A stretch of 64,000 bases of DNA, from contig JAVRCJ020000002.1 in NCBI GenBank assembly GCA_034530875.2, positions 160,001 to 224,000 on the forward strand, written 5' to 3'. The notes beneath the pieces were generated by a model. It was not told the origin of the DNA and searched no databases. It worked only from the letters and a program-made list of their open reading frames with translations. Position 1 is the first letter of the stretch. Every line of letters starts with the position of its first letter. Shown piece by piece: positions 20,235 through 49,220 of the stretch. The stretch is from Nostoc sp. DedSLP01 (lineage in GTDB: Bacteria; Cyanobacteriota; Cyanobacteriia; Cyanobacteriales; Nostocaceae). Made by a program: the position numbers and the translations under genes.

Positions 20235-20272
20235 GTCTTAATAATTACGAATTACGAATTACGAATTACGAA

Positions 20273-21742
20273 TTAAGAATTATCCTTTTCTTTGGCCTTT
20301 TCAATTTTGTAATCTTTCGGTGGGTTAACAAAAATGCGATCGCCTTGTTTAACTCCTCCTAAAATCTGAGTTTGGTCTTTGATTTGCGCTCCTACTGTGA
20401 CTTCACGGAATTGAGGTTTATTATTTTCATCTGGTACGAGTACGCCAGTTCTACCTTTTTCGGTGACGATGGAAACTGTTGGTAATACTAAGGCATTATT
20501 AACGCGATCGCCCAAAAAAGTCAGATCCACATTTAAGCCAGAACGCAGTTTATCTATGCCAGTATCCAGAGCAACTCGCACTTGGAAGGATGTCACACCT
20601 TGTTCTACCACTGCTTCCGGAGCAATCAAGCGCACGTGTCCTTTAAAAACTTGGTCTGGATAAGCATCCGCGACAATTTCCACCTGTTGTCCCGGTTTGA
20701 TTCTACCAAGATCGGCTTCGGGAACTTGAGCTAATATTTCTAAACCCCGCGCTACAGCAACAATTGAACTGGAAGTTGCCGACGCACTGGTAGACGCGGA
20801 AGTTGTGGGTGTCACAAACGCACCAACGTTGGCATACTTTTGCGTCACAATTCCCGAAAAGGGAGCGCGAATAATTGTATCTTCCAGCTGCACTTGCACG
20901 CCTTTCAACTGAGCCTCAGCAGATGCGACAGCTGCTTGACGCTGGGCAATTTCCTCAGAACGGGTACCATCTTCCAAGAGTACTAATGCGGCGCGTGCTT
21001 CATTAACAGCCGCTTGACGTTGGGCGATTTCTTCACTGCGAGAACCACTTTGAACTAAAGACAATCGCTTTTTCGCTTCTTCTAAATTAGCTCTGGCACT
21101 TTTATCTTCACTGAGGGCTTGATCGAATAATTGTTTTTTCTCTGCACCCTGTTGATATAGATATTCGTAACGCTTTACTTGTTCGGCGGTGTAATTCACC
21201 TTTGCCTGAGCTGCATCTACTTGGGCTTGAGCTTGGGCAATTTCTTGGGGACGATTACCTACACGAGCTTGGGTTAACTGGGCTTGGGCTTGGGCTAATC
21301 GCGCCTTAGCTTGGGCTATTTCTTGAGGACGGCTACCAGCAAGGGCTTCGGCTAACTGTGCTTGACTTTGCGCTAAGTTTGCAAGATATTGACTTTTTTG
21401 TGCTTCTATGGCTGCGCTATCCATGCGGGCGAGAATTTGCCCTTTTTGAACGCGATCGCCTTGTTCGACATACAATTGCGACAGCACGCCAGGATTTTTG
21501 GGGCTAATATTCACGCTCTCCACTGGCACGACTTTACCGCTAGCCGTTATCCGCAATGTAACGTTTTGTGCGGCAACTGGGACAGTTAGGCGATCGATGT
21601 CTTCTTTGTTTGTACCTTGATTTATCAGCGTAAAGTTTGCAAATGTACCAACAACTAAGGCTCCCCCTGCCATCAGCCCAATTAGCCAGCGTAATGGATG
21701 CTTTACTTTGCCAATAACTGGAATTTCTATGTACGTAACCAT
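20273..21742 (-). CDS. Efflux periplasmic adaptor subunit (HlyD/MacA-like)
   Basis: N-terminal TM, lipoyl half-motifs (VEQGDRVQKGQ, IRAPFSGIV), long coiled coil. Confidence 0.92.
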   Translation of the reverse strand: MVTYIEIPVIGKVKHPLRWLIGLMAGGALVVGTFANFTLINQGTNKEDIDRLTVPVAAQNVTLRITASGKVVPVESVNISPKNPGVLSQLYVEQGDRVQKGQILARMDSAAIEAQKSQYLANLAQSQAQLAEALAGSRPQEIAQAKARLAQAQAQLTQARVGNRPQEIAQAQAQVDAAQAKVNYTAEQVKRYEYLYQQGAEKKQLFDQALSEDKSARANLEEAKKRLSLVQSGSRSEEIAQRQAAVNEARAALVLLEDGTRSEEIAQRQAAVASAEAQLKGVQVQLEDTIIRAPFSGIVTQKYANVGAFVTPTTSASTSASATSSSIVAVARGLEILAQVPEADLGRIKPGQQVEIVADAYPDQVFKGHVRLIAPEAVVEQGVTSFQVRVALDTGIDKLRSGLNVDLTFLGDRVNNALVLPTVSIVTEKGRTGVLVPDENNKPQFREVTVGAQIKDQTQILGGVKQGDRIFVNPPKDYKIEKAKEKDNS

Positions 21743-22134: not shown

Positions 22135-22782
22135 TTAAACACATCCAACTCGCACCGCCCTAGTAGCAGCCTCCGTGCGGTTGGTTGCTCCTAACTTATT
22201 TAGTACCTGACTTACATGATGTCTAATGGTAGAAGGACTCAATTTCATTCGTTGAGCGATCGCTTCATTACTCAATCCTAAAGCCAAGAGTGTTAACACC
22301 TCTGCTTGTCGCCTGCTCAGTTCGTATGCAGGAGGGGATGATGGTTGAGTCGGTTGCACCAACGCCTGAATTACCTCTGCTGCCAAAATAGATCGACCAA
22401 TCGCAGCACAACGTATAGCATCCGCTAACTCATCAATCGAGACGCCCTTGAGTAAATAGCCAATGGCTCCGGCTTGCATTGCTTTCTGTACTAACCCCTT
22501 ATCTAGAAAACTGGTCAAAATTAAAACCTGGATTTCTGGGTATTTTTTGCGGATAACTCTTGTGACTTCCGCCCCATTCATCCCCATCATCATCAAATCC
22601 ATCAGCACTACATCTGGTTGCAAGTTTTCGCAAAGACGTATTGCTTCATCTCCATTACCCGCTTCCCCCACTAACTCAATATCATCAAAGGCCAGCAAGA
22701 GAAATTTAATACCTCCCCGCAAGATTTGATGATCGTCAACAGTTATGACCCGAATTGGTTTGACCAATTTATCTGTTTCCAT
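22135..22782 (-). CDS. NarL/FixJ-family response regulator (REC plus LuxR HTH)
   Basis: VDDHQILRGG, DVVLMDL, GYLLK, LSRRQAEVL..LALGLSN..IA..TIRHHVS. Confidence 0.93.
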   Translation of the reverse strand: METDKLVKPIRVITVDDHQILRGGIKFLLLAFDDIELVGEAGNGDEAIRLCENLQPDVVLMDLMMMGMNGAEVTRVIRKKYPEIQVLILTSFLDKGLVQKAMQAGAIGYLLKGVSIDELADAIRCAAIGRSILAAEVIQALVQPTQPSSPPAYELSRRQAEVLTLLALGLSNEAIAQRMKLSPSTIRHHVSQVLNKLGATNRTEAATRAVRVGCV

Positions 22783-23306
22783 ATTTAAATCCGGGTTGTT
22801 AAAACTATTTTTTTAATAGATTAATATTATTTTCTATTATTCCATCGTTAATTTTTTAGAAAAAAATCTTAATCTTTAATTTGAATTTTTTACCAGCAGA
22901 CAATAAAACTTTGCAAATGCAAATATCAATAATAATCTGTATTTTCCAAATCAGTCAAGGTAAATAAATATAACTATAGGATTCCGATTTGATTGCTGAA
23001 CTATTCGTAGAGGCAGGAGACAGGGTTGGGCTAAAAACGAATAAAAGTGTACCTAGCTTCGTATAAATCAAATATGAGTTTTATGTATTGCAATCAGCTT
23101 TAGTTAAGAAAATTCTTCTGTAAAAGTGGGAATAGAGAATAAGAAACAGTAAACAAAGGCAGAAAAACAAGCTTGTCTAAACTGGAATTAACTATATTAC
23201 GAAAAATAAATATCTCTAAAAACCTTACTATTGAGCAATAAAAAGCAAAAATGTCGATTGTATTTAGTTAAGTTTATTTGTGCCCACTTTAATGACTCAT
23301 TTGCAA

Positions 23307-24677
23307 TTATGAATTTTCTATTCTCAAGATAGAGGTTGACCAACTTAGAGAAATGTCAGTTCCCCTTCCTAAATAGCTTGATAAGTGAAAATTAGCGCCA
23401 ATGGACTCGGCTCGTTCTTTCATAATTGCTATCCCTAAATGACCAGATGGTATCTCTCTAGGGTCAAAACCACAGCCATTATCACTGATAGCCAAGACCA
23501 GCTTTTGTAAATCGTACTCAAGGCTGACTGATACTTGCGTAGCTTGGGCATGTTTAATAATATTATTAAGTGCTTCTTGAGTAATCCGGTAGAAAACGAG
23601 CTTTACCTCACTAGATAAAGAAAAATTACCTTTTACCGTTGTTGTTACTTGTAAACTTGCTCGTCCAGAAATCGCCTTGGCTAACTGCTGTATTAATTCA
23701 CCTAATGATTTCTCTGCCAAACCATCGGGACGCAATTCGATTAGTAAATTTCGCATCTCTGCTAAAGCGCCTTGTGTGAGTTGGGCGAGTTCCTCTAATC
23801 CTTGTTGGGCTATGTCTGGGTGGCGTTTCCAAACTCTAGGTAAAGCTTCGGCAATAGTCGCTACAGTAAACAATGTCTGCGACACTGAATCGTGTAAGTC
23901 ACGAGCGAGGCGATTTCGCTCGACTTCCACGGCTGTTTTGCGTAGCCGTTCGCTTTCTAGCAATTGTTCGCGTAGTTTTACCGCTTGGATTAAATCTTTG
24001 GATAAGCGTAGACTCATAATTACCACGAAGGACATAAATCCAAACTCACCCAGGTATATAAATTTGATCTTTCCCAAATCTACTAGGCGATCGTGTTGAA
24101 CAGTTGCTATTAAAATTGCTAAACTTAGTCCGAGAGTGAGTGCTGCTTGTTTCTCGCCGCGCCGATATTGAAGGTAACAGGCAAAAAAAACGAAAACAGT
24201 ATTACTGAAGAAAGCTAATAATTGGAAAATGAATAGGGGATTGAGCGTAGCTTCTGGGTAAGGAATCGATTCGCCCCAAGGCAAAGAAATACTTGATAGG
24301 TTGCTGATATGAGAGTAGAGAATTCCTGTCAGTGAAATTTGGTTGATTAACAGGCTGATGAAGTACAGGCTATTGATTCCTAAAATTAAACGCACTGGTC
24401 TAATATTGGTATACACAGACACAAACCAAGCTATAGTAATGCCGTAAATATAGCCCAAAGAACTTAGTAATTTTGTGGCATTTATATAATCGTCTACATT
24501 CATGGCTTTATATTCAGCTATAAGAGCCAAAACATAACCAAAAGCTACCAAGCAGCTTAATCCAAAGCATAAGTTTAGTGCGGGTTTTAATCGCCCAGAG
24601 GCAATTAGTAAGTGTAAAAAACCAATATATATGATAATCCCAGCAATTATACTTAGAACGGTTAGAATTAAAGTCAT
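23307..24677 (-). CDS. Membrane sensor histidine kinase, HisKA_3 (NarX/DegS-like)
   Basis: Multiple N-terminal TM segments; ERNRLARDLHDSVSQ, QEALNNIIKHA, DNGCGF and HLGIAIMKERA. Confidence 0.93.
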   Translation of the reverse strand: MTLILTVLSIIAGIIIYIGFLHLLIASGRLKPALNLCFGLSCLVAFGYVLALIAEYKAMNVDDYINATKLLSSLGYIYGITIAWFVSVYTNIRPVRLILGINSLYFISLLINQISLTGILYSHISNLSSISLPWGESIPYPEATLNPLFIFQLLAFFSNTVFVFFACYLQYRRGEKQAALTLGLSLAILIATVQHDRLVDLGKIKFIYLGEFGFMSFVVIMSLRLSKDLIQAVKLREQLLESERLRKTAVEVERNRLARDLHDSVSQTLFTVATIAEALPRVWKRHPDIAQQGLEELAQLTQGALAEMRNLLIELRPDGLAEKSLGELIQQLAKAISGRASLQVTTTVKGNFSLSSEVKLVFYRITQEALNNIIKHAQATQVSVSLEYDLQKLVLAISDNGCGFDPREIPSGHLGIAIMKERAESIGANFHLSSYLGRGTDISLSWSTSILRIENS

Positions 24678-24782
24678 TACTTATTCTCTGAAAATTTCTA
24701 TCTAGCAATAAATAAGTAATATCACTTCAATAGAAACGTCTCGCCTTTTGTATATAGGTTCTCGATTCTTAAATTAGCTAAA

Positions 24783-24950
24783 TGCATCGGCTTGCACCTT
24801 TGTTGCATTGGGTTGCACCTTTGTTGCATTGGGTTGCACCTTTGTTGCATTGGGTTGCACCTTTGTTGCATCGAGTTGCACCTTTGTTGCATCGAGTTGC
24901 ACCTTTGTTGCATTGGGTTGCACCTTTGTTGCATCGGGTTGCACCTTTGT
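24783..24950. repeat. 21-bp tandem repeat array 1 (8 units)
   Basis: Unit TGCATYGRSTTGCACCTTTGT read directly. Confidence 0.95.
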
Positions 24951-24969
24951 TGTATTACAGCAGTTTTTA

Positions 24970-25064
24970 TTAGACATCTCCAAGAAATTAATTCTGCGTT
25001 AACCGAAAACCCAGTAGAGACGTAGCATTGCTAGGTCTCTACATTGTTTTTTGGAGATGTCTAA
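24970..25064. mobile_element. MITE-like element containing a REP-like palindrome
   Basis: TTAGACATCTCCAA ... TTGGAGATGTCTAA ends; internal GTAGAGAC-N-GTCTCTAC hairpin. Confidence 0.65.
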
Positions 25065-25190: not shown

Positions 25191-25559
25191 ATGGCTACCC
25201 AAAATACAACACGCCGTTTGCGCCCTCAATTAATTAGTGAAGATGTAAGTTCATGGTACGGTTTACAAACCGTCAGTACCTATGAAACTAACCGTGCTGA
25301 TGCCTCTGCTGCCAAATTACAGCAAGCTTATCAAGCTATGTTAGCCCAGCAACAAGCGGAAACCGAAAAACAAACTTTATACCGTGCTGCGGCTGATGCT
25401 GCGCGATTAGCAGAATGGGAATTTCACAATGCCGTATTAGCAATGAAACAAGTTGTGCGCGGACAATATGGATTAGATAGCGATCAAGCTCAAGCAGTAG
25501 GACTGAAGAAAAAATCGGACTATAAGCGTCCTAGTCGCAAAAAGTCAGTCGCATCATGA
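25191..25559 (+). CDS. Hypothetical small alpha-helical protein with basic C-terminal tail
   Basis: 122-aa ORF, Ala/Gln-rich helices, ends GLKKKSDYKRPSRKK. Confidence 0.8.
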   Translation: MATQNTTRRLRPQLISEDVSSWYGLQTVSTYETNRADASAAKLQQAYQAMLAQQQAETEKQTLYRAAADAARLAEWEFHNAVLAMKQVVRGQYGLDSDQAQAVGLKKKSDYKRPSRKKSVAS

Positions 25560-26759: not shown

Positions 26760-28649
26760 ATGACAACTATCAATTTTGACGATTTAGCTCCTAATACAGT
26801 TGTAAGCAATCAGTATTCAGGAGTAACGTTTTCATCTGGTGTAGGAAGTTCTGTTGTAGCATTTAATTATGGTTCTTTCGCACCCTCTCAACCAAACGCA
26901 ATCTTTGCAATAAATCCCTCCACCGGGTTTGATCGAATTTTGAATGTTGATTTTGCTCAACCAGTTAATAATTTATCATTTTCTGTATTTGCGGATAATA
27001 CTGCTGGTCTTAGTGGCAAAATTGATGTTTTTACTACTACAGGATCGCCCATTACAGTTGATCTCATTACTGATGGTCAGCAGTTAACTCCAGATCTTGT
27101 AAATTTATCATCATTTACAAACATCACCCGCATTAGTGTCAACAACACAGGAGATCCTAACGGTATTGCATTTGATAACTTTCAATTCAACTTTGCTCCA
27201 GTTGCCGTTAATGACAGTGGCACCACTAATGAAAACACCGCCTTCAGTGGCAACGTACTAGCCAATGATACTGACCTAGATACAGGTGATATCCTCACTG
27301 TTAGCGCAGTCAACGGTAGTACGGCTAATGTTGGCAATCAAATTACTTTAACTTCTGGTGCGCTACTCACTCTCAACACCGATGGCACATTCGCCTACAA
27401 CCCCAACGGTCAATTTGAATCCTTGGGCGTAGGAGCTAGTGCCAGCGACAGTTTTACTTATACTATTAGCGATGGCAATGGCGGCACTGCTAGTGCCACA
27501 GTTAACCTGACTATCAACGGCGTTAACGATGCGCCAACAGGTTCACCCACAGCGACTTTAAGTAATACCCCAGAAGATATAGCGATTACCATTACTGCGG
27601 CAAACTTATTAGCAGGCTTTACGGATGTCGATGCTAGTGATATCCTTTCCGTTGCCAACTTAACTGCTACTAACGGTGCATTGGTAAATAACAATAATGG
27701 CACTTATACCTTCACCCCAACAGCCAACTTTAACGGTACTGTCACCCTCACCTACAATGTCACCGATGGCACAGCTAGTTTAACCGGACAAACTCGGAGT
27801 TTCTCTGTCACCCCTGTTAACGATGCCCCTGTTGCTGGTGATGACAGTGCTTCCACATTCTTTGGTACTACCGTCAACATCGCAGTTAGCACCCTACTAG
27901 CTAACGATAGCGATGTTGATAGTTCCTCCCTCAGTATCACTGGTGTCAGCGGTGCTACCAACGGTACTGCCGTCCTCAATAATAACGGCACAGCCAACAA
28001 CAGTGCAGATGATTTCGTTTCCTTTACGCCAAATCTTCTGTTTTTTGGTAATGCCAGCTTTAATTACACCCTCAGCGATGGTAGCCTGACTGATACTGGT
28101 ACGGTGACTGTGGCTGTCGGTCTTAACAGTAATGGCACGAATCAACCGGATAACATAATTGGCACCCTTGGTAACGACATCATCAACGGCGGCAATGGCA
28201 ACGATACCATCTACGGCGGCGCGGGTAACGATAGCCTCAACGGTGATAATGGCAACGACATCTTGTATGGCGATGGGCTGATGGATGGCGGCGCGGGTAA
28301 CGATACCCTCAACGGTGGTAATGGTGATGATACCCTATACGGTGGTGGCGGTAGCGATCGCCTCACAGGTGGTAATGGCAACGATCTCCTTTATGGTGGT
28401 GCTGGCAGCGATACCCTCACAGGTAGCAATGGTAACGATATCTTTGCCTTTGCTGCTCTTGAAGGTACTGACACGATTACTGATTTCTCTAAGGGTAGCG
28501 ATCTGATTGGATTGTATGGTGGTTTAAGCTTTGGGCAACTGAGTTTCTCTGGTAACAATATCTTAGTGACTTCCACTAATGAAATTTTGGCGACGCTGAC
28601 TGGTATTAATACTACGACGCTGAGTGCCGCTAATTTTGTAACGCTTTAA
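26760..28649 (+). CDS. Secreted RTX (Ca-binding nonapeptide) protein with cadherin/Ig-like domains (RTX-A)
   Basis: APVAVND/NVLANDTD/FTYTISDG cadherin-like repeats; GGxGxD nonapeptides; T1SS-type C-terminus. Confidence 0.9.
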   Translation: MTTINFDDLAPNTVVSNQYSGVTFSSGVGSSVVAFNYGSFAPSQPNAIFAINPSTGFDRILNVDFAQPVNNLSFSVFADNTAGLSGKIDVFTTTGSPITVDLITDGQQLTPDLVNLSSFTNITRISVNNTGDPNGIAFDNFQFNFAPVAVNDSGTTNENTAFSGNVLANDTDLDTGDILTVSAVNGSTANVGNQITLTSGALLTLNTDGTFAYNPNGQFESLGVGASASDSFTYTISDGNGGTASATVNLTINGVNDAPTGSPTATLSNTPEDIAITITAANLLAGFTDVDASDILSVANLTATNGALVNNNNGTYTFTPTANFNGTVTLTYNVTDGTASLTGQTRSFSVTPVNDAPVAGDDSASTFFGTTVNIAVSTLLANDSDVDSSSLSITGVSGATNGTAVLNNNGTANNSADDFVSFTPNLLFFGNASFNYTLSDGSLTDTGTVTVAVGLNSNGTNQPDNIIGTLGNDIINGGNGNDTIYGGAGNDSLNGDNGNDILYGDGLMDGGAGNDTLNGGNGDDTLYGGGGSDRLTGGNGNDLLYGGAGSDTLTGSNGNDIFAFAALEGTDTITDFSKGSDLIGLYGGLSFGQLSFSGNNILVTSTNEILATLTGINTTTLSAANFVTL

Positions 28650-28825
28650 TCATCTCGATTCATGCAACGTCTTTTAGATGCGTAGGTTAGGCTTACCGTG
28701 GGAGAACCCAACCTAGATAGTGTTTTGAGGTGTTGGGTTTCGTCCCTCAACCTAACCTACATTTGCATCAGATTTTTTGTGAAAGTTTAACTTTGTTGGG
28801 TGGGCAAATGTTTGCTCACCTAACC

Positions 28826-29003
28826 GCACCTTTGTTGCATCGGCTTGCACCTTTGTTGCATCGGCTTGCACCTTTGTTGCGTCGACTTGCACCTTTGTTG
28901 CATCGGCTTGCACCTTTATTGCATCGACTTGCACCTTTGTTGCATCGGCTTGCACCTTTATTGCATCGACTTGCACCTTTGTTGCATCGGCTTGCACCTT
29001 TAT
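28826..29003. repeat. 21-bp tandem repeat array 2 (about 8.5 units)
   Basis: Unit TGCATCGRCTTGCACCTTTRT. Confidence 0.95.
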
Positions 29004-29039
29004 TACATTGCTAATAACTATAACTAATCCTTATATAGG

Positions 29040-29104
29040 ACAAAGATCCTAGTCAAAACTTGGATCTTTGTACGATGCGCTCACAAAAGCGATCGCTCTA
29101 TAAT
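29040..29104 (+). promoter_or_regulatory. Operator-promoter module, copy C
   Basis: ACAAAGATCCTAGTCAAAACTTGGATCTTTGT (29040-29071), 27 bp, TATAAT (29099-29104). Confidence 0.75.
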
Positions 29105-29247: not shown

Positions 29248-29814
29248 ATGAATAAATTCTTTTCGACTCTAACCTTAACAACAGCTACAACTTTAGCTAT
29301 TGCATTCACTGGAGCAACAATCGCTAATCACCTTGTTTTAGGGCAGACATCTATTGACTTAGCCAAGTTACGTAGCGATGCTGTATCTGCACACAACACT
29401 TATCGAGCTAAGCATAAAAGTCCTAACGTCACCATTGATGATACTCTCAACCAGAGTGCCCAAGCTTGGGCACAAACCATAGCAGCTAAAGGTGACTTAG
29501 AACACAGTACCAATCGCAACAATGTCGGAGAGAACATATACTGGGGTGGAGAATCAGCAAACTCAGGTACCGAAGCAACTGACAGCTGGTACAGCGAAGT
29601 TAAAGACTATGACTACAACAACCCTGTATTTTCTAGCTTAACCGGACATTTTACTCAGGTAGTCTGGAAAGGCAGTACAAAAGTAGGCTGCGGTGCTGCA
29701 CCCGGCCCTGCAACAATTGAGGGTACTAAGTACGATGGCGTCTATGTAGTTTGTCAGTATTCTCCCGCAGGAAATGTAAAAGGACAGTTTGCTGATAATG
29801 TCCTAAAACCGTAG
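29248..29814 (+). CDS. Secreted CAP/SCP (PR-1-like) protein
   Basis: Signal peptide; HNTYRAKH, GENIYW, WYSEV, GHFTQVVWK, VVCQYSPAGN. Confidence 0.93.
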   Translation: MNKFFSTLTLTTATTLAIAFTGATIANHLVLGQTSIDLAKLRSDAVSAHNTYRAKHKSPNVTIDDTLNQSAQAWAQTIAAKGDLEHSTNRNNVGENIYWGGESANSGTEATDSWYSEVKDYDYNNPVFSSLTGHFTQVVWKGSTKVGCGAAPGPATIEGTKYDGVYVVCQYSPAGNVKGQFADNVLKP

Positions 29815-30433: not shown

Positions 30434-31282
30434 ATGACTGGCAAAATCCACTTTATCTCCGGCTTACCTCGTTCCGGTTCCACCTTACTCGCAGCCTTAC
30501 TGCGGCAAAATCCGCGATTTCACGCCAGTATGACAAGCCCCGTCGGGAGTTTGGTAAACCGAATGCTCGAAGCGATGAGCGAAGACAACGAATATTCTGT
30601 CTTTATCACCCCAGAGCAAAAACGGGCATTAACCTTAACGATATTTTCCACATTCTACCAGCCCCAAGCTGATAAAGAAGTCATCTTCGACACTAACCGC
30701 TTGTGGTGTAGCAAATTGTCTTTAATTCACGAGCTATTTCCTGGCTCAAAGGTGATTTGCTGCGTGCGGAATGTGGCTTGGATTATGGACAGCATCGAAC
30801 GGCTGATTAGAAAAAACGCCTTTGATGTGTCGCGGATGTTTAACAATTCTGGCGAAGGTTCCACAGTTTACACCCGCACCGAAGCTTTGAGTGGTGGGGG
30901 AAGGTTAGTCGGATTTGCTTATAACGCCCTCAAAGAAGCTTTTTATAGCGAACACAGTGCTTGTTTGTTGTTGGTGGACTATGACTTATTAACTCAAGCA
31001 CCAGATAAAACCCTATCGCTAATTTATCAATTCATAGAAGAAGAACCCTTTGACCATGATTTTGACAATGTGGAATATGAAGCTGAGGAATTTGATTCGC
31101 GGCTGAATACCAAAGGGTTACATCAGGTGCGTCGCAAAGTTGAGTTTAAACCGCGATCGACAATCTTACCACCGGATTTATTTGCTCAATATGATGCGTT
31201 GTCTTTTTGGCAGAACCCCAGTAATAGCCGAGCGAATGTGATTGTCGCCCAGCCGATACCAGCGGCGAATTCATCAAGCTGA
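30434..31282 (+). CDS. Sulfotransferase, RaxST/TPST-like, copy 1
   Basis: 5'-PSB motif [14 protein letters not shown], 3'-PB motif [28 protein letters not shown]. Confidence 0.9.
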
Positions 31283-31431
31283 GAATTTTCTCTCTTTGTT
31301 GCTGCATAGAGACTGTAGGTTGGGCTTACCGTGTGAAAACCCAACAAAGACTTGCAGATGTTGGGTTTCGTTGCGTCAACCCAACTTACCATTTTCTTCT
31401 CATTTACCTAATACCAAAGGAAATCAATCAA

Positions 31432-33390
31432 ATGACAAATTTCACTGTTAACCAAACCACTGATGACGGAACTGGCTTAACTGCTGGAACCCTCAGTTAT
31501 GCCATTCGCCAAGCTAACCAACTGGCAGGGGATGACACGATTACCATTGATAACGATGTCCGCATCACTGGGGTAATGAAAACCCTGGTGAACAGCAACA
31601 TCACCATTGTCGGCAACAACCACAGTATTAGCGGCGATGCGAATAATGACGGCATCAACAATAACGGCGACGTGCGCCCCCTGTTTATCCTATCCGGAAA
31701 TGTGGAGATTTCCAATTTAACCATCACCAACGGACGAGCTAAAGGCGGAGATAGTGGAGCTGGTGGCGGCGGTGCAGGACTCGGCGGCGGCTTGTTCATC
31801 TATGATGGCAATGTTTCCTTAACCAATGTCGCCTTTACTAATAACGCAGCACAAGGCGGTAGTAGCGGTGTCGGCGGCCGTGGCGGCGGCGGTATGTTTG
31901 GCAACGGCGGCGGCAACGGCGGCGGCGGACTGTTTGCCAGTAGCACTGGCGACAACGGGGGCTACGGGGGCTACGGCAACTACGGCGGCTTTGGCGGCGC
32001 CATCTTCAGCAACGGCGGCTTCGGCGGCGGCGGCGGCTACGGCACCGCCAACGGCGGCTTCGGCGGCTTTGGCGGCGGCGGCGGCGGCGGCTACTTCGGC
32101 AACGGCGGCTTTGGCGGCTTCGGCGGCGGCGGCGGCTTCGCCATCTACGGCGGCGGCGGCGACGGCGGCTACGGCAGCGGCGGCGGCGGCGGCAGCGGCG
32201 GCGGCGGCTTCGGCGGCAGCTTCGGCGGCTTTGGCGGCGGCTTCGGCGGCGGCGGTGCTGGATTAGGGGGTGGCATCTTCGTCCGCAGTGGCTCTTTAAC
32301 CCTCAACAACACCAGCTTTACCAACAACACAGCCACAGGTGGGACGGGTGCTAACTCAGGTCAAGGCTTGGGTGGGGCAATCTTCATTATGCAGTCTACC
32401 AACAATACCAACGGCAATAACCAGGGAATGCCGACTACCCTTGGCAGTGTCAGTTCTGCTGGTACCCAGCCTACCTTTAGCGGCAACAGTGCGGCGAATG
32501 ATGCGGCAACACCGACAAATAACGATGATGTTTACGGCACAATTAACGTCACTGCAACCAACCAAGCCCCCGTTGCTGTTGATGACATTGTTTCCACATT
32601 CTTTGGTACTAGCGTCAACATCCCAGTTACTACCCTACTAGCCAATGATAGCGATGCCGATGGCAACCCTCTGAGCATCACTGCTGTCAGCAGTGCTACC
32701 AACGGTACTGCCGTGCTGAATAATAACGGCACCCCCAACAACAGTGCAGATGATTACGTTACCTTTACTCCAAATCTTCTATTCGTTGGTAATGCCAGCT
32801 TTAACTACACCCTCAGCGATGGTAGCCTCACTGATACTGGTACGGTGACTGTGGCTGTCGGTCTTAACAGTAATGGCACTAATTTTGCTGATAGCTTGAT
32901 TGGTACCCTTGGTAACGACATCATCAACGGCGGCAATGGCAACGATACCATCTACGGCGGCGCGGGTAACGATAGCCTCAACGGTGATAATGGCAACGAC
33001 ATCTTGTATGGCGATGGACTGATGGATGGCGGCGCGGGTAACGATACCCTCAACGGTGGTAATGGCAATGATACCCTCTATGGTGGCGGCGGTAGCGATC
33101 GCCTCTCTGGTGGTAATGGCAACGATTTACTCTATGGTGGTGCCAGCAGCGATATCCTCACAGGTGGCAGTGGTAACGATATCTTTGCTTTTGCTGGTGG
33201 GGAAGGTACTGACACCATTACTGATTTCATTAAGGGTAGCGATCTGATTGGATTGTATGGTGGTTTAAGCTTTGGGCAATTAAGTTTCTCTGGTAACAAT
33301 ATCCTGGTGACTTCCACTAATGAAATTTTGGCGACGCTGACTGGCATTAATACTACGACGCTGACTGCTGCTAATTTCGTCACGCTTTAA
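31432..33390 (+). CDS. Glycine-rich secreted RTX protein (RTX-B)
   Basis: ATG 31432 after AAGGA; beta-helix-like N-terminus, long GGF/GGY tract, cadherin-like domain, RTX nonapeptides. Confidence 0.9.
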
Positions 33391-33409
33391 TCATCCTTAT
33401 TTGATGCAA

Positions 33410-33466
33410 GCACCTTTGATGCATTGGCTTGCACCTTTGATGCATTGGCTTGCACCTTTAATGCAT
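33410..33466. repeat. 21-bp tandem repeat array 3 (about 2.5 units)
   Basis: GCACCTTTGATGCATTGGCTT units. Confidence 0.85.
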
Positions 33467-33510
33467 GAGCGTTGCAAAAATTAGCCTTGCTCAGTCTTCA
33501 GAGAGTGGAG

Positions 33511-33541
33511 GCGATGTCTACGACAAGGCTTACGCCTACGC
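33511..33541. repeat. SDR5-like element in a HIP1 site; identical copy at about 26551-26581
   Basis: GCGAT-GTCTACGACAAGGCTTACGCCTA-CGC. Confidence 0.7.
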
Positions 33542-33577
33542 TACTCTCACGTTTCACATAAGTATCAATTATATAGG

Positions 33578-33642
33578 ACAAAGATCCTAGTCAAAACTTG
33601 GATCTTTGTACGATGCGGTCGTTGAGGCGATCGCTATATAAT
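33578..33642 (+). promoter_or_regulatory. Operator-promoter module, copy E
   Basis: ACAAAGATCCTAGTCAAAACTTGGATCTTTGT (33578-33609), 27 bp, TATAAT (33637-33642). Confidence 0.75.
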
Positions 33643-33745
33643 CTCACCAACGCAAAATTTTAACAACTGTCTAGCCTGTGCGGGTAAAACACACAGGTGC
33701 AAAAGCTTTTATATCAAGGCAATAAATCAAAGCCAATCAATCATC

Positions 33746-34588
33746 ATGACTGCCAAAATCCACTTTATCTCCGGCTTACCTCGTTCTGGTTCCACCTTAC
33801 TCGGAGCCTTACTGCGGCAAAACCCCCGGTTTCATGCCAGCATGACTAGCCCTGTTGGTAGTCTGGTGAACCGAATGCTCGAAGCGATGAGCGAAGACAA
33901 CGAATATTCTGTCTTTATCACCCCTGAGCAAAAACGAGCATTAACCTTAACTATATTTTCCACATTCTACCAGCCGCAAGCAGATAAAGAAGTCATCTTT
34001 GACACTAACCGCTTGTGGTGTAGCAAATTATCCTTAATTCACGAGCTATTTCCTGGCTCCAAGGTGATTTGCTGCGTGCGGAATGTCGCTTGGATTATGG
34101 ATAGCATCGAACGGCTGATTAGAAAAAACGCTTTTGATGTGTCGCGGATGTTTAATAATGCTGGTGAACGCTCCACAGTTTACACCCGCACCGAAGCCTT
34201 GAGTCAAGGGGGACGGTTAGTGGGGTTTGCTTATAACGCCCTCAAAGAAGCATTTTATAGCGAACACAGCGCCTCTTTGCTTTTGGTGGACTATGACTTA
34301 TTGACCCAAGCACCTGATAAAACCCTATCGCTGATTTATCAATTTTTACAAGAGGAACCCTTTAAGCATGATTTTGCCAATGTAGAATACGAAGCTGAGG
34401 AATTTGATAATCGCCTGAATACTAAGGGACTACATCAGGTGCGTCGCAAAGTCGAGTTTCAGCCGCGACTGACAATTTTACCACCGGATTTATTTACTCA
34501 GTATGATGGGTTGTCTTTTTGGAAGAATCCTAGCAATAGTCTAGCAAATGTGATTGTCGCCCAGCCAGTAGAAGCAGTGAGTAAATGA
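33746..34588 (+). CDS. Sulfotransferase, RaxST/TPST-like, copy 2
   Basis: Near-identical paralog of 30434-31282 with the same PAPS-binding motifs. Confidence 0.9.
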   Translation: MTAKIHFISGLPRSGSTLLGALLRQNPRFHASMTSPVGSLVNRMLEAMSEDNEYSVFITPEQKRALTLTIFSTFYQPQADKEVIFDTNRLWCSKLSLIHELFPGSKVICCVRNVAWIMDSIERLIRKNAFDVSRMFNNAGERSTVYTRTEALSQGGRLVGFAYNALKEAFYSEHSASLLLVDYDLLTQAPDKTLSLIYQFLQEEPFKHDFANVEYEAEEFDNRLNTKGLHQVRRKVEFQPRLTILPPDLFTQYDGLSFWKNPSNSLANVIVAQPVEAVSK

Positions 34589-34618
34589 AGCTTTGAATTT
34601 TCCCCTTCTCTACCAGGC

Positions 34619-34771
34619 TGCAACTTAGATGCATCGGCTTGCAACTTAGATGCATCGACTTGCACCTTTAATGCATTGACCTGCACCTTTGATGTATCAA
34701 ATTGCAACTTTAGTGCATCGGCTTGCAACTTAGTTGCATCAACCCGCACCTTAGTTGCATCTACCTGCAAC
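34619..34771. repeat. 21-bp tandem repeat array 4 (about 7 degenerate units)
   Basis: TGCAACTTAGATGCATCGGCT-type units. Confidence 0.85.
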
Positions 34772-34874
34772 AAGCAAGTTTGTAGTAAGAACTTTAGTCG
34801 TTATTTTCTAAGCACTAAAGTGCTTACTACAAACCCTCAAAACATCTGAATTTGTAGGGTGCGTTATGGAGATA

Positions 34875-34953
34875 CAGCACCAATGAAATCCTGGCAACGC
34901 TGACGGGTATTAATACCACTACCCTCACATCTGCTGATTTCTTAACGGTCTAG
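34875..34953 (+). pseudogene. Orphan 3' fragment of an RTX gene
   Basis: Encodes [29 protein letters not shown], near-identical to the end of RTX-C. Confidence 0.75.
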
Positions 34954-35277
34954 GATTATAGCTTTTTTAGTTGATTAGTGATGCGATCGCTTTTTCTTTT
35001 GACCTCAAAGGCGATCGCATTTTCGCCCATCAAGTCTATTTAATCAAACGCGCTGAAAACAACAGGAATTACTCTATGCCTAATTGCGAGCGCGCCAGAC
35101 GATTTTACCACCAGATTTATTTACCCAGTCTAATCAGTTGTCTTTTTGACCAAATCCTAGCAATGGTTTGGCGAATTTGATCGCTCCCCAGCCCATAGAG
35201 ACAACGGTTAAATCTAGTTTCCTTTTTTAAGGGACAAAAGTTTCACTGACTCGAACTAAACCAAGGAAAAAAATCAA

Positions 35278-37215
35278 ATGGCAACTTTTAATGTAACTTC
35301 TACTACCGATGACGGAACTGGCTTAACCACAGGCACCCTCAGTTATGCAATTCTCCAAGCCAACCAACAGGCAGGGGATGACACGATTAGCATCGATACC
35401 GATGTCCGCATTACAGGGGTGATGAAAACCCTCGTCAACAGCAATATCTCCATCGTCGGCAACGGCAACAGCATCAGTGGTGATGCCAACAACAACGGCA
35501 TCAACGACAACGGCGACGTGCGCCCCCTATTCATCCTATCGGGAAGCGTCGATATTTCTGACCTGACCATCACCAACGGACGAGCTAAAGGCGGAGATAG
35601 TGAACAAGGTGGCGGTGGTGCTGGTATGGGAGGCGGCTTGTTCATCTATGATGGCAATGTGTCTTTGACCGATGTCGCTTTCACTAATAACGCAGCACAA
35701 GGCGGTAATAGCGGTATCGGCTTCGGCAACAACGGTGGTGGTGGGATGTTCGGCAATTCTGGCGGCTACGGCGGCGGCGGACTGTTTGGTTCGAGCAACG
35801 GCAACAACGGCGGCTATGGTGGTAACGGTAACTACGGCGGCAGCAGCAACGGCGGCTTCGGCGGTGGCGGCTTCGGCAGCAGCGGTATCGGCGGCAGCGG
35901 CGGCTTCGGCGGCGGTGGTGGCAGGGGTGTTGTCGGCGACGCCGGCAGCGGCGGCTTCGGCGGCGGTGGTGGCAGTAGCGTTGCCGGCGATGGTGGCAGT
36001 GGCGGCTACGGCGGCGGCGGCGGCTACTTCGGCGGCAGCGGCGGCTTCGGCGGTGGCGACGGCACTGGCTTTCTCGGTGGCGGCGGTGCTGGACTAGGGG
36101 GTGGCATTTTCGTCCGTACTGGTTCTTTAACCCTCAACAACACCAGCTTTACCAACAACACGGCTACAGGTGGTTCGTCTTTAAACGATGGCCAAGGCTT
36201 AGGTGGGGCAATCTTCATCATGCAGTCCACCACCAATACCAACGGCAACAACCAGGGAATGCCGACTGTCCTACCTACCGTCAATTCTGTAGGTAATCCT
36301 ACCTTTAGTGGCAACAGTGCAGCAAATGATGCAGGAACAGCCACCAATAACGATAATGTCTACGGCACGATTAACATCACTGCCAGCAACCAATCCCCCG
36401 TCGCTAACCCCGACAGTGCGACCACTGCCAAAAATACTGCCGTCAGCATCTCGGTAAGTACCCTGTTAGCTAACGATACCGATCCCGACAGCAACCCCCT
36501 CAGCATCACTGGTGTCAGCGGTGTGACTAACGGTACTGCCGTCTTTAACAATAACGGCACAGCCAGCAACACGGCAGATGATTTCGTTCTCTTTACTCCA
36601 ACTACTGGATTCAGTGGTAATGCCAGCTTTGACTACACCCTCAGCGATGGTAGCCTCACTGATACTGCTACAGTTACCGTGGCTGTCGGTAACAACATTC
36701 TAGGCGGTAATGGTGCTGATAGCCTGAGTGGCACAGCAGGCAATGACTCCATTGCCGGAGGCAATAGCACTGACACTCTCAACGGCTTGGGGGGTGATGA
36801 CACCCTTGTCGGCGGTAATCAAGGGGATATCCTCAATGGAGGCGATGGCAATGACCTCCTGCTAGGGGAAGAAAGCGATAACAGTGGCGGTGGCAAAGAC
36901 ATTCTCAATGGCGGTGCTGGTAATGACATTCTCAATGGCGGTAACGGCGTAGATAACCTTACAGGTGGTACTGGCAACGACATCTTAACTGGTGGCAATG
37001 GTTCTGATACTTTCATCTTCGCCGCCCTAGACGGCACCGATACCATCACCGATTTTAGTGGAGCAGATGTAATTGGTTTGTCTGGGGGTCTGAGTTTCGG
37101 CGCTCTGTCCTTCTCTGGCAGCAACATCATTGTTACCAGCACCAATGAAATCCTGGCAACGCTGACGGGTATTAATACCACTACCCTCACATCTGCTGAT
37201 TTCATCACGGTCTAG
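35278..37215 (+). CDS. Glycine-rich secreted RTX protein (RTX-C)
   Basis: N-terminus paralogous to RTX-B, Gly-rich tract, cadherin-like domain, RTX nonapeptides. Confidence 0.9.
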
Positions 37216-37324
37216 GATTATAGCCTTTTTTCGGTGATTAGTGATGCGATCGCTTTTTCTTTTGATCTTAAACGCGATCGCATTTTCGCCCATAAAGCCT
37301 ATTTAATCAAACGCGCTGAAAACA

Positions 37325-37482
37325 TTAGTTTGGGTCAAGGAGACAAAATCGGTTTGTCTGGCTTGAGTTTTAGTCAGTTGTCTTTCTCTGGTAATGAGAT
37401 TCGGTTAGGTAATCAAACTTTAGCAATACTCACTGGCTTTGATACGACGACGCTGACACAAAACAACTTTACTTCTGTTTAA
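37325..37482 (+). pseudogene. Second orphan RTX C-terminal fragment
   Basis: LGQGDKIGLSGLSFSQLSFSGNEIRLGNQTLAILTGFDTTTLTQNNFTSV-stop with no credible N-terminus. Confidence 0.7.
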
Positions 37483-37528
37483 GTCTTTTGGGTGGGCAAA
37501 CGTTTGCCCACTCAACAAATTGGCTAAA

Positions 37529-37618
37529 TGCATTGACTTGCACCTTTGTTGCATTGACTTGCACCTTTGTTGCATTGGCTTGCACCTTTGTTGCATTGGC
37601 TTGCACCTTAATTGCATT
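37529..37618. repeat. 21-bp tandem repeat array 5 (about 4 units)
   Basis: TGCATTGRCTTGCACCTTTGT units. Confidence 0.9.
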
Positions 37619-37624
37619 AAAGGA

Positions 37625-38266
37625 TTATTGTTGAAATTGGCTCAATAACCAAGCACCAACTTGACTTTGATACATTTGACGAGTTCGCCGTAATGCTTCG
37701 TTTAATAAAGAAATAGCTAATCCTGGCAACACCTGAGATTCTGTAATTCGGCGGCTACCTTGGTTTTCAATGGCAAAAGCCATAATTTCCACGTTTTGGA
37801 CATTTGAAATCCAGTATTCTTTGACTCCTAAATCTTCGTATAGTAACCGTTTGTTACCGAGGTCGTCAGCAAGGGAAGTATTGGCAACTTCAATTACTAA
37901 ATCTGATGGTGGATAGATGTCTAAGTTAACAATAGAAGTACCGTAGGGAATAATATTAGCATTCTCGCTAATGTAGTAAGACACATCAGGTTGAGCTTCA
38001 TTCAAGCCTGTTTTTCGATATGTACAATTATCTTTACCATTGAGAGCAATGCCTTTGATGGTGGCAAACAAGTTAACAGCAAACAGAATAATTGTATGGT
38101 CGCTGGCGTGGTCATTTCCTACTGCGTAGATTTCAATCCTCATGTGTCCATTGTGGTAGTAGCCCTTGGCTTTTTCGTAGGCAGGATTTTCTATGAATCC
38201 AATATATTCATCCCAAGTGGCTTTTATCCAAATATCAGTTACTAGTGGGATCTGTAATTCGCTCAT
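37625..38266 (-). CDS. Uma2-family (PD-(D/E)XK-like) endonuclease
   Basis: QPDVSYY, DLVIEVA, KRLLYEDLGVKEYW; start placed at MSELQ. Confidence 0.88.
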   Translation of the reverse strand: MSELQIPLVTDIWIKATWDEYIGFIENPAYEKAKGYYHNGHMRIEIYAVGNDHASDHTIILFAVNLFATIKGIALNGKDNCTYRKTGLNEAQPDVSYYISENANIIPYGTSIVNLDIYPPSDLVIEVANTSLADDLGNKRLLYEDLGVKEYWISNVQNVEIMAFAIENQGSRRITESQVLPGLAISLLNEALRRTRQMYQSQVGAWLLSQFQQ

Positions 38267-38499
38267 AATATTATTGCCAAAGGATAACTCGAACAACGAT
38301 CGCACAAGTTGTATCACCATTAAGCTGATAATAAAGCTTTCGTCGCCTTCTTGCTGACTCTTTTCGTAAGATATCCCAAAGCCTCTAAAGTGATTTTTTG
38401 TAAAATTATATACTGCACTTTTCAATTTTCTGGGTAATCAAAATTTAGAGGCGATCGCTACTTAAAATTTGAGAATGCGATTAAATTTTAAATAAAACT

Positions 38500-39084
38500 A
38501 TGAAACAACAAGGCATAATTCTCTGGCTAACAGGCTTAAGCGGTGCTGGAAAAACAACCATCGCCCACGGTGTCGCCCAAGAACTACTTCTGAGAAATTA
38601 CGCACTAGAAGTACTAGATGGTGATGTGGTTCGCACCCATCTTTCGCAAGGGTTGGGTTTTAGCAAACAAGACCGAGATACAAATGTGCGTCGTATTGGC
38701 TTTGTTGCTGAATTACTCAGTCGCAATGGCATAATTGCGATCGTTGCTGCAATCAGCCCTTACCGTGAAATTCGAGACGAACTCAAAAAGACTTCTACCA
38801 ATTTTGTAGAAGTTTATGTAAAAGCTCCACTTACAGTTTGTGAATTACGTGATGAGAAAGGACTTTACGCTAAAGCCAAGGCAGGAGAAATCAAACATTT
38901 TACTGGAATCTCTGACCCCTATGAAGAACCATTAAATCCAGAGATTATCTGCCAAACCGATAAATTTACTATTGAGCAATGTGTTAACCGAGTAATTAAC
39001 TATTTAGAACACAAAAATTTTATCGTTGCTGATAAAAAATCTCATGCTAATTTAATTACAATCTCTCATAAAGATATGATTTAA
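38500..39084 (+). CDS. cysC: Adenylyl-sulfate (APS) kinase
   Basis: WLTGLSGAGKTT, LDGDVVR, LGFSKQDRDTNVRRIG, ISPY, KGLY, FTGISDPYE. Confidence 0.95.
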   Translation: MKQQGIILWLTGLSGAGKTTIAHGVAQELLLRNYALEVLDGDVVRTHLSQGLGFSKQDRDTNVRRIGFVAELLSRNGIIAIVAAISPYREIRDELKKTSTNFVEVYVKAPLTVCELRDEKGLYAKAKAGEIKHFTGISDPYEEPLNPEIICQTDKFTIEQCVNRVINYLEHKNFIVADKKSHANLITISHKDMI

Positions 39085-48488: not shown

Positions 48489-49220
48489 TTACCCCAAATA
48501 AGCCTTTTTCACTCGCTCATCACTAATTAATTCTGATGCTGCGCCTGTTAAAGTTATAGAACCAGCTTCTAGAACATAACCGCGATCGGCAATTTGAAGT
48601 GCTAAATTAGCGTTTTGTTCAACTAACAAAATAGTCACGCCAGTAGCTCGTAAATTTTCAATAATCGAGAAAATTTCCCGAACGATCGCAGGTGCTAAAC
48701 CTAAGCTAGGTTCGTCTAAAAGTAACAGTTTTGGTTTACTCATTAAAGCACGAGCGATCGCTAACATTTGTTGTTCGCCACCACTCAAAGTTCCTGCTAA
48801 TTGATTGCGTCTTTGTGACAAACGGGGAAATAGCTCAAATTGACGTCCGATATCTGCTTTTATCTCTGCTTGGTTAGAGCGAATATAAGCACCCAAAAGT
48901 AAATTATCAAATACTGTTTGTCGTGCTAAAACTCTCCGCCCTTCTGGACAATGAGCAATCCCAAGTTGTACAACTTCATGAGCTTGGCGGCGGGTAATAT
49001 TTCGTCCATCATAGATAATTGCACCACTTCTGGGATTAACTATTTTCGATATAGCCCGGAGTGTAGTAGTTTTCCCAGCACCATTAGCGCCAATTAAAGT
49101 AACTACCTCACCTTTTTTAATAACTAAATTAATTTTCTTCAGAGCTTGAATACCGCCATAGTTTACATCAAGTTCTTGAATTTCTAAAATTGTATAATTT
49201 TGTGTAATATCAACGTTCAT
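48489..49220 (-). CDS. livF: Branched-chain amino acid ABC transporter ATPase (LivF-like)
   Basis: GANGAGKTT, PEGRR, LSGGEQQMLAIARAL, LDEPSLGLAP, VEQN. Confidence 0.92.
   Translation of the reverse strand: MNVDITQNYTILEIQELDVNYGGIQALKKINLVIKKGEVVTLIGANGAGKTTTLRAISKIVNPRSGAIIYDGRNITRRQAHEVVQLGIAHCPEGRRVLARQTVFDNLLLGAYIRSNQAEIKADIGRQFELFPRLSQRRNQLAGTLSGGEQQMLAIARALMSKPKLLLLDEPSLGLAPAIVREIFSIIENLRATGVTILLVEQNANLALQIADRGYVLEAGSITLTGAASELISDERVKKAYLG

Follow-up and report, generated by a model that had tools for sequence, protein, structure and literature searches.

RaxST-family sulfotransferases paired with glycine-rich RTX proteins in Nostoc: a candidate tyrosine-sulfation system of cyanobacteria

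Introduction

According to excerpts of a 2022 review, most bacteria encode no tyrosylprotein sulfotransferase (TPST), the only worked case being RaxST and its substrate RaxX in Xanthomonas, and raxST-like genes often lie beside genes for extracytoplasmic proteins, a point cited there as unpublished (PMC9372746). Cyanobacterial raxST homologues with approximately 40% identity are mentioned in print, in a passage that gives their substrates as unknown and presumably different from that of RaxST (PMC6637879). In these passages, no partner family, Gly-rich insert, or site is named. Here, we describe a locus of Nostoc sp. DedSLP01 in which two such enzymes, ST1 and ST2, are found with two Gly-rich repeats-in-toxin (RTX) proteins, RTX-B and RTX-C. 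The locus lies within a 64,000-nucleotide stretch of contig JAVRCJ020000002.1 (positions 160,001 to 224,000), called the window below, and all unlabeled coordinates are window positions. We found no account of this pairing of enzyme and Gly-rich partner in the open-access literature. From this locus, a substrate domain with five to seven target residues can be put forward as a candidate for raxST homologues.

The closest described system is RaxST-RaxX-RaxAB, which, as far as excerpts of two sources describe it, shares with the Nostoc locus the enzyme family, an unanchored cytoplasmic enzyme encoded beside an exported partner, and a Tyr near a run of Gly (PMC6637879; 10.1101/442517). The Nostoc locus differs in that the partner is a many-Tyr RTX protein of approximately 650 amino acids rather than a 60-amino-acid GG-leader peptide with one DY site, and in that raxA and raxB are lacking. 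No small GG-leader peptide with a DY core was present among the window open reading frames (ORFs) of at least 80 amino acids, shorter ORFs not having been screened. The system would resemble RaxST-RaxX in action but is not a member of the raxX-raxSTAB ribosomally synthesized peptide (RiPP) system. The metazoan enzymes TPST1 and TPST2 (PDB 5WRI, 5WRJ, and 3AP1) provided the best profile and structural match; however, they are only 15 to 21% identical to the Nostoc enzymes, are Golgi membrane enzymes that prefer acidic sites, and have a catalytic Glu without a clear counterpart here.

Two further systems offer partial parallels. HlyC acylates Lys of the pore-forming toxin HlyA in the cytoplasm before type I export. 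There, as in the Nostoc locus, the modifier gene is directly upstream of the RTX gene, whereas here the modifier is a sulfotransferase and the partner is adhesin-like. The sulfotransferase domains of CurM and OLS act on acyl carrier protein-bound beta-hydroxy acyl chains inside polyketide synthases (PKS). These domains (PDB 4GBM and 4GOX) are cyanobacterial and gave the next-best fold matches (Z scores of 16.2 and 15.1), but there is no PKS at this locus and the root mean square deviation (rmsd) was 4.5 to 5.4, versus 3.1 for TPST.

Results

ST1 and ST2 belong to the RaxST family

By sequence, ST1 (30434..31282, plus strand, 282 amino acids) and its paralogue ST2 (33746..34588, plus strand, 92% identical) are RaxST-family sulfotransferases. 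When ST1 was compared to a RaxST orthologue encoded in a raxX-raxST-raxA-raxB cluster, the identity was 47% across 261 residues (E 1e-86), and the identities of both enzymes to two RaxST orthologues were 44 to 47.5%. These orthologues were taken from two Xanthomonadaceae genomes and recognized by synteny, with raxX divergent from raxST, which is followed by genes for an HlyD protein and a C39-peptidase ABC protein, the whole flanked by gcvP and a major facilitator superfamily gene; the cluster arrangement used for this recognition is the one given in part of PMC6637879. The RaxST-like motifs noted in the original prediction, made from the letters of the window, proved to be real: the Arg11 and Ser118 with which RaxST binds the sulfate donor 3'-phosphoadenosine 5'-phosphosulfate (PAPS) correspond to Arg13 and Ser120 in both ST1 and ST2. 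A dN/dS ratio of 0.08 indicated that the two genes are intact and under strong purifying selection. Two other residues of RaxST, His50 and Arg129, are replaced by Asn52 and Asp131 in ST1 and ST2; a passage of PMC6637879 proposes that these two residues bind RaxX and are needed for its sulfation.

When a profile of 61 sequences was compared to the PDB, human TPST1 and TPST2 ranked first (E 1e-12), and the next class followed at 5e-8. An AlphaFold model of ST2, with a mean predicted local distance difference test (pLDDT) score of 94.8, matched TPST1 and TPST2 with Z scores of 19.4 to 20.0 over 240 residues (rmsd of 3.1 to 3.2), compared to 16.2 for CurM, up to 14.1 for heparan enzymes, and up to 13.1 for cytosolic SULT enzymes. 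The enzymes are therefore predicted to have a TPST-like fold. In a quick tree of 81 rows, which holds no outside sulfotransferases and carries a warning of long branches meeting, RaxST lay on its own long branch within the same starred (99*) clade of 57 rows as ST1 and ST2, together with cyanobacterial, mycobacterial, proteobacterial, and Ralstonia members. The kinship with RaxST that had been predicted was thus upheld, and by the profile and fold rankings the enzymes did not group with carbohydrate or small-molecule sulfotransferases.

The conserved unit is an enzyme gene followed by a gene for a Gly-rich domain

In the whole 8.6-Mb genome, PF13469 matched ST1 and ST2 and no other protein. 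RTX-B (31432..33390, plus strand, 652 amino acids from the ATG used by homologues or 685 from an upstream GTG at 31333) and RTX-C (35278..37215, plus strand, 645 amino acids) are the only two ORFs of the genome with at least 20 Gly per 40 residues. Because the sole PF13469 matches and the sole Gly-rich ORFs of the genome coincide, their pairing is not attributable to chance.

This pairing was retained in other cyanobacteria. Among 401 cyanobacterial genomes, which include kin and so do not provide independent counts, the enzyme was found in 26, the N-terminal domain of RTX-B and RTX-C in 30, and both in 21. In 19 of the 20 top-scoring enzyme loci, the domain gene came immediately after the enzyme gene in the same orientation, although the partners in these loci were approximately 500 to 2,400 residues long and the flanking genes varied. 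Six further loci comprised three that were paired, one that was unpaired, one at a contig end, and one with a broken enzyme beside an insert-less gene (L182), and all three of three additional Nostoc loci were paired. Of the nine genomes with the domain only, three had an intact enzyme of a second clade just upstream (G091, G029, and G299; 22 to 27% identical to ST2), one had an enzyme lacking the catalytic Arg downstream, one carried a distant enzyme elsewhere on the contig of the domain gene, one was a deletion remnant, and three had none. In G351, the enzyme and the domain were lost jointly. No accessory gene recurred across clades in the 103 loci surveyed. Taken together, these results demonstrate that the conserved unit consists of two genes, encoding the enzyme and a predicted beta-helix domain with a Gly-rich insert of approximately 130 residues, and they strengthen the earlier proposal that the RTX proteins are the likely substrates.

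At the Nostoc locus itself, the five genes of the original prediction (ST1, RTX-B, ST2, RTX-C, and cysC) were all found where they had been placed, on the plus strand. It had also been proposed that each sulfotransferase gene precedes an RTX gene. This holds for ST1, but ST2 is not directly upstream of RTX-C: the 690-bp gap between them is occupied by what remains of the 3' end of an RTX gene that has been lost (34875..34953, plus strand, 97% DNA identity to the end of RTX-C) and, directly before RTX-C, by the broken 3' relic of a third sulfotransferase gene (35078..35212, plus strand, 58% identical to residues 236 to 278 of ST2, with two stops). Because of these relics, the array is best read as a decayed triple tandem that once held three enzyme-RTX units. 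The locus as a whole is patchy, duplicated, and decaying.

Several variants of the unit were seen. Among the distant enzymes, those of the clade without the catalytic Arg (L168:5699-6520, L318:12513, and L321:971), which carry GLPCSG in L168 and L318, are still full length, and in L168 the enzyme gene is followed by a GNAT gene. In G371, a fragment of a DUF4915 (TIGR03032-like) gene (L033:12220-12528) follows enzyme, RTX, and CAP genes.

The partner proteins carry a Gly-rich insert in a predicted beta-helix

RTX-B consists of a predicted beta-helix domain with a Gly-rich insert, a cadherin-like domain, eight RTX nonamers (GGxGxDxL) near the C terminus, and a C-terminal tail, and RTX-C has the same architecture with six nonamers. 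The nonamer regions matched NF033943, both proteins scored far under the RTX-toxin cutoff (84 and 80 of 1,000 bits), and their N termini, judged by eye, had no hydrophobic stretch. From these sequence features, RTX-B and RTX-C are likely RTX-type substrates of type I secretion. As had been predicted, no type I secretion ATPase was found in the window; no C39-ABC gene was present among window ORFs of at least 150 amino acids, and three HlyB-family ATPases above the cutoff are encoded elsewhere in the genome. Near the island, the minus strand encodes a MacB-type permease and an HlyD-family adaptor (19017-21742), and a solitary ABC ATPase gene is found 27 kb away (48489-49220); these do not make up an HlyB-type type I secretion system.

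The N-terminal domain had no match in Pfam. A model of RTX-B residues 1 to 375 (pLDDT 80.9, predicted template modeling [pTM] score 0.85) formed a right-handed beta-helix bearing the insert. The helix had generic structural matches to lyases and tailspikes (Z scores up to 15.7 over approximately 175 residues, with the insert unmatched, by VIA-align), and Foldseek returned nothing at E 0.001 with this domain model; because of this, we do not claim lyase activity. The insert of RTX-B (31861..32253, plus strand, residues 144 to 274) is 61% Gly, lacks Lys, and has seven Tyr, at 178, 181, 184, 203, 221, 239, and 247, which are candidate sulfation sites. Residues 170 to 190, including an 11-residue tract singled out in the original prediction, were modeled at low confidence, and residues 190 to 270 (pLDDT 71 to 87) had neither helix nor strand by DSSP, which would fit a polyglycine II bundle of the kind known from phage gp38 or PE_PGRS, although the match to gp38 was weak (E 0.49). 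The insert of RTX-C (35707..36084, plus strand, residues 144 to 269) is 57% Gly and has five Tyr, at 164, 180, 186, 244, and 250. Alignment of the domain revealed two conserved Tyr motifs, GGYGGGG and a 10-residue motif that is contained in the RTX-C insert.

Tyr content of the insert and presence of the enzyme

We compared the inserts of proteins with and without a linked enzyme. Of approximately 160 domain matches, 80 were fetched and pooled with the earlier loci. Inserts shorter than 80 residues were removed, as were rows that lacked the closing motif and matches that were weak or partial, which left 102 domains. An intact enzyme was encoded in cis for 44 of these, 31 came from enzyme-less genomes, and 12 had an enzyme elsewhere only; the others lay beside an enzyme fragment (9), in genomes with only broken or degenerate copies (4), or beside an enzyme lacking the catalytic Arg (2). 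The median number of Tyr per 100 insert residues was 4.10 for the linked domains (n = 44) versus 0.95 for those from enzyme-less genomes (n = 31). None of the 44 linked inserts was free of Tyr, compared to 11 of the 31 enzyme-less inserts, and two or more GYG were present in 34 of 44 versus 2 of 31; G213 was counted as linked with the circularity of its contig not shown, and without it the linked values are 0 of 43 and 33 of 43. The ratio Tyr/(Tyr + Phe) was 0.41 in linked and 0.17 in enzyme-less inserts. Ser and Asn were equal in the two groups, and Thr and acidic residues were lower in linked inserts. GGYGG (78) and GNYGG (19) were the leading contexts among the 269 Tyr of linked inserts. 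The two inserts beside enzymes lacking the catalytic Arg had zero and one Tyr. In metagenome loci picked by the domain alone, where enzymes in trans are invisible, 10 of 12 linked inserts had two or more GYG, compared to 1 of 12 unlinked inserts.

These results agree with the earlier suggestion that the GGYGG tracts are likely sites, since it is the Tyr of the insert, and not Ser, Thr, Asp, or Asn, that goes with the enzyme. They do not favor acidic DDVY, DNVY, or DDY sequences as the main targets, which had been suggested as well: the inserts are poor in acidic residues, and the His50 and Arg129 of RaxST are exchanged. The end-of-domain motif (DDVYG/DNVYG), which holds a Tyr in 24 of the 33 enzyme-linked proteins in which it was detected, may nevertheless be a target; just 5 of 37 unlinked rows showed the motif, too few for a useful comparison.

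Relatives in other phyla

With a mycobacterial homologue as the query, at least 589 matches were obtained, and the neighbors of the 80 best, which are not a random sample, were inspected. A Gly-rich ORF lay within 700 bp of the enzyme gene in 23 of 49 mycobacterial-type loci and in 21 of 31 proteobacterial loci. These neighbors include PE_PGRS proteins and ESPR autotransporters, and Dyella relatives also abut Gly-rich exported proteins; in L122, a PEP-CTERM protein is encoded 1.8 kb from the enzyme. The export routes represented in the pairing are RTX/type I secretion (cyanobacteria), autotransporters (Dyella and Pseudomonas), PE_PGRS (mycobacteria), and PEP-CTERM. PGRS tracts adjoining an enzyme had 1.23 Tyr per 100 residues versus 0.63 in 22 control PE_PGRS pieces from four control genomes, a comparison weakened by the control spanning only the first approximately 500 residues of each protein. 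Tyr41 of RaxX is itself preceded by GGG-D.

Homologues with 28 to 33% identity were also found in the cyanophages S-SKS1, S-SRM01, and S-SCSM1. The S-SKS1 copy (L134:3512-4342) is near a 2-oxoglutarate-Fe(II) oxygenase gene, and a cyanophage copy had no Gly-rich neighbor within 10 kb.

cysC and other genes of the island

The cysC gene (38500..39084, plus strand) encodes an adenosine 5'-phosphosulfate kinase (TIGR00455, 242.7 bits, with a cutoff of 138.7) and could serve as an optional PAPS supply. The gene that had been placed at the island edge is real, but it is separated from RTX-C by a relic RTX tail and by a Uma2-family gene on the opposite strand (37625..38425, minus strand), a conserved backbone gene outside the system that adjoins a glucokinase block in relatives. 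An 82-codon ORF (37234..37482, plus strand) has a second half that reads like the RTX C-terminal tail; it is probably another relic, and family searches with it gave zero matches. The window copy of cysC was inserted beside the conserved Uma2 gene, and a second copy is present elsewhere in the genome. Linkage of cysC to the enzyme was seen in 3 of 56 cyanobacterial enzyme loci and in 2 of 3 further loci (5 of 59, all Nostoc-like) and in 2 of 80 loci of a separate set; it was also seen on a Nostoc plasmid, in two proteobacterial loci, and in Ralstonia. We rejected cysC as a core gene; it is an occasional, optional add-on.

Two neighboring secreted proteins of the same island, which had been offered as alternative substrates, were also rejected. 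The gene for the CAP-domain protein (29248..29814, plus strand) was beside the enzyme in only 1 of 20 relative loci, and RTX-A (26760..28649, plus strand), a cadherin/RTX protein that shares its C-terminal tail with RTX-B and RTX-C, has neither a Gly-rich insert nor a linked enzyme and is probably no substrate.

Repeats and relics account for the intergenic stretches of the locus. Most island genes are followed by arrays of a tandem repeat with a 21-base unit (24720-25019, 28752-29072, 33389-33487, 34567-34824, and 37519-37617); the repeat is also common elsewhere in Nostoc-like genomes, and the arrays may have driven the duplications and deletions of the island. A palindrome with two 10-base arms and a 12-base spacer is found upstream of four island genes (25721, 29041, 29926, and 33579). 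These are four of the five copies in the genome, the fifth being on contig C50, and none was found in 10 homologous loci. The palindrome may be part of a promoter that was duplicated, or else an operator, which the NarL-type regulator encoded with a HisKA_3 kinase at 22135-24677 might recognize. A scan for promoters and terminators gave results at chance level (15 versus 14.5). A gene for a 122-amino-acid protein of no firm family (25191-25559), of which the genus has numerous copies, lies next to the enzyme-RTX unit in G189, G351, G996, and G1004. A TROVE/Ro60-like gene lies at 17115-18716; such proteins are usually partnered by Y RNA. Contigs from three DNA runs of one study, which may be the source sample, span ST1/RTX-B, ST2 to 34904, 35004-35594, and Uma2/cysC with zero differences.

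Discussion

We propose, with a probability of roughly 0.6, that ST1 and ST2 sulfate Tyr within the GGYGG and GNYGG sequences of the insert, in the cytoplasm, with PAPS as the donor, before type I export. Because an anchor is missing from the enzyme and no signal peptide is apparent in the RTX proteins, their encounter would take place in the cytoplasm. RTX substrates do not fold before they are exported, and several Tyr of the insert would be sulfated during this time, with the local cysC topping up PAPS. Export would then proceed through one of the unlinked HlyB-type systems, and outside the cell, folding of the RTX and beta-helix parts would expose the sulfated Gly-rich domain. The outcome would be five to seven sulfates clustered on a nearly uncharged Gly-rich surface domain, with a possible role in adhesion or recognition; any link to plant or lichen association is speculative.

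Several observations weigh against this proposal. The Tyr contrast lies mostly in one clade and amounts to eight changes on the tree when the metagenome rows are included, with four independent pairs on starred branches (3.0 in the same direction and 0.1 opposite, p = 0.25), or two pairs without the metagenome rows. Within this clade, six of eight enzyme-less lineages were Tyr-poor by our reading of the tree (L166, L331, L344, L167/L168/L318, the L269 group, and L257), and two keep Tyr without an enzyme, L335 (4 GYG) and the metagenome locus L227 (11 Tyr). Outside it, L338 (8 Tyr), L339, L341 (12 Tyr), and L366 (8 Tyr) are Tyr-rich with no enzyme in cis. Phe is also higher in linked inserts (6.6 versus 4.8), as is Gly. 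Only 8 of the 269 Tyr of linked inserts have Asp before them, whereas the known substrates of RaxST carry Asp before Tyr, according to an excerpt of 10.1101/442517. The proposal therefore requires that the site preference has changed; the exchanges at His50 and Arg129 fit such a change but are no proof of it. The catalytic Glu of TPST lacks a clear counterpart in the alignments of ST1 and ST2, and the intact enzymes of G295 and G335 lack a Gly-rich-domain neighbor. In other phyla, none of 18 non-rax Xanthomonadaceae loci passed the Gly filter (six abut large non-Gly autotransporters, and L219 abuts a partly Gly-rich one). In one Xanthomonadaceae subclade (L207:6521-10143, L208:6509-10165), the enzyme gene lies in an operon between genes for MATCAP, of a tyrosine carboxypeptidase family, and a pyridoxal phosphate (PLP)-dependent decarboxylase, which hints at a tyrosine-derived small-molecule pathway. 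On a Ralstonia megaplasmid (L132:9001-18807), a 49% identical homologue and cysC precede a large nonribosomal peptide synthetase (NRPS) gene, a context matched by 149 plasmid records, 133 of them from Ralstonia; part of PMC4023598 lists the Ralstonia raxST homologue Rsp0167 as unknown. In view of these contexts and of the cyanophage copy, the enzyme family has several uses, of which the Gly-rich pairing is the commonest in these samples.

These contexts lead to a first alternative, which we consider rather unlikely: that the enzyme acts on a small phenol or peptide metabolite, the RTX gene being co-travelling cargo of a mobile, co-regulated island and the Tyr-rich insert a clade trait. Relatives at approximately 50% identity before the NRPS gene with cysC, or between MATCAP and the decarboxylase, would suit it, as would the nonsignificant phylogenetic contrast and the patchiness, duplication, and decay of the locus. 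However, the two-gene unit stays while its flanks change, two distant enzyme clades and four export routes repeat the pairing, and no metabolite gene lies within the window island. The joint loss in G351 and the broken enzyme beside an insert-less gene in L182 also argue against it.

It is quite improbable that the partner is modified at another site, namely, the end-of-domain motif, Ser or Thr, or an attached glycan. The tight pairing would suit any site on the partner, the end motif is acidic like the known TPST sites described in part of PMC9372746 and usually holds a Tyr in linked proteins, and a GNAT gene is beside some enzymes of a distant clade (L168 and L169). Conversely, linked inserts are not richer in Ser, Thr, Asn, or Asp, a glycosyltransferase recurs in none of the 103 loci, and carbohydrate sulfotransferases reached Z scores of at most 14, compared to 20 for TPST. 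A very improbable alternative is that the enzyme is a noncatalytic binding or export chaperone for the insert, with Tyr serving in packing or cross-linking; enzymes lacking the catalytic Arg do remain beside the domain gene (L168 and L318) and aromatic residues are generally higher in linked inserts, but ST1 and ST2 retain both PAPS motifs under strong purifying selection, cysC has been recruited in several Nostoc-like loci, on a Nostoc plasmid, in two proteobacterial loci, and in Ralstonia, and the Arg-less enzymes accompany Tyr-poor inserts.

Multisite Tyr sulfation of the Gly-rich insert, the reading that we prefer, may extend beyond Nostoc. Tentatively, and at somewhat less than even odds, RaxST would have become specialized within a widespread bacterial family that normally sulfates several Tyr in the Gly-rich domains of large surface proteins, irrespective of the route by which these are exported. 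If this is true, such proteins would form an unrecognized class of polysulfated bacterial surface proteins recognized by a neutral GxY-G code. RaxX, the hormone mimic, would then have originated when an enzyme of this kind was redirected to a GGG-DY peptide. Sulfation of RTX-B and RTX-C, if true, would add a protein modification to those of bacterial surfaces, provide a TPST for nonacidic sites that could be used in making sulfoproteins, and offer an origin for the RaxX mimic.

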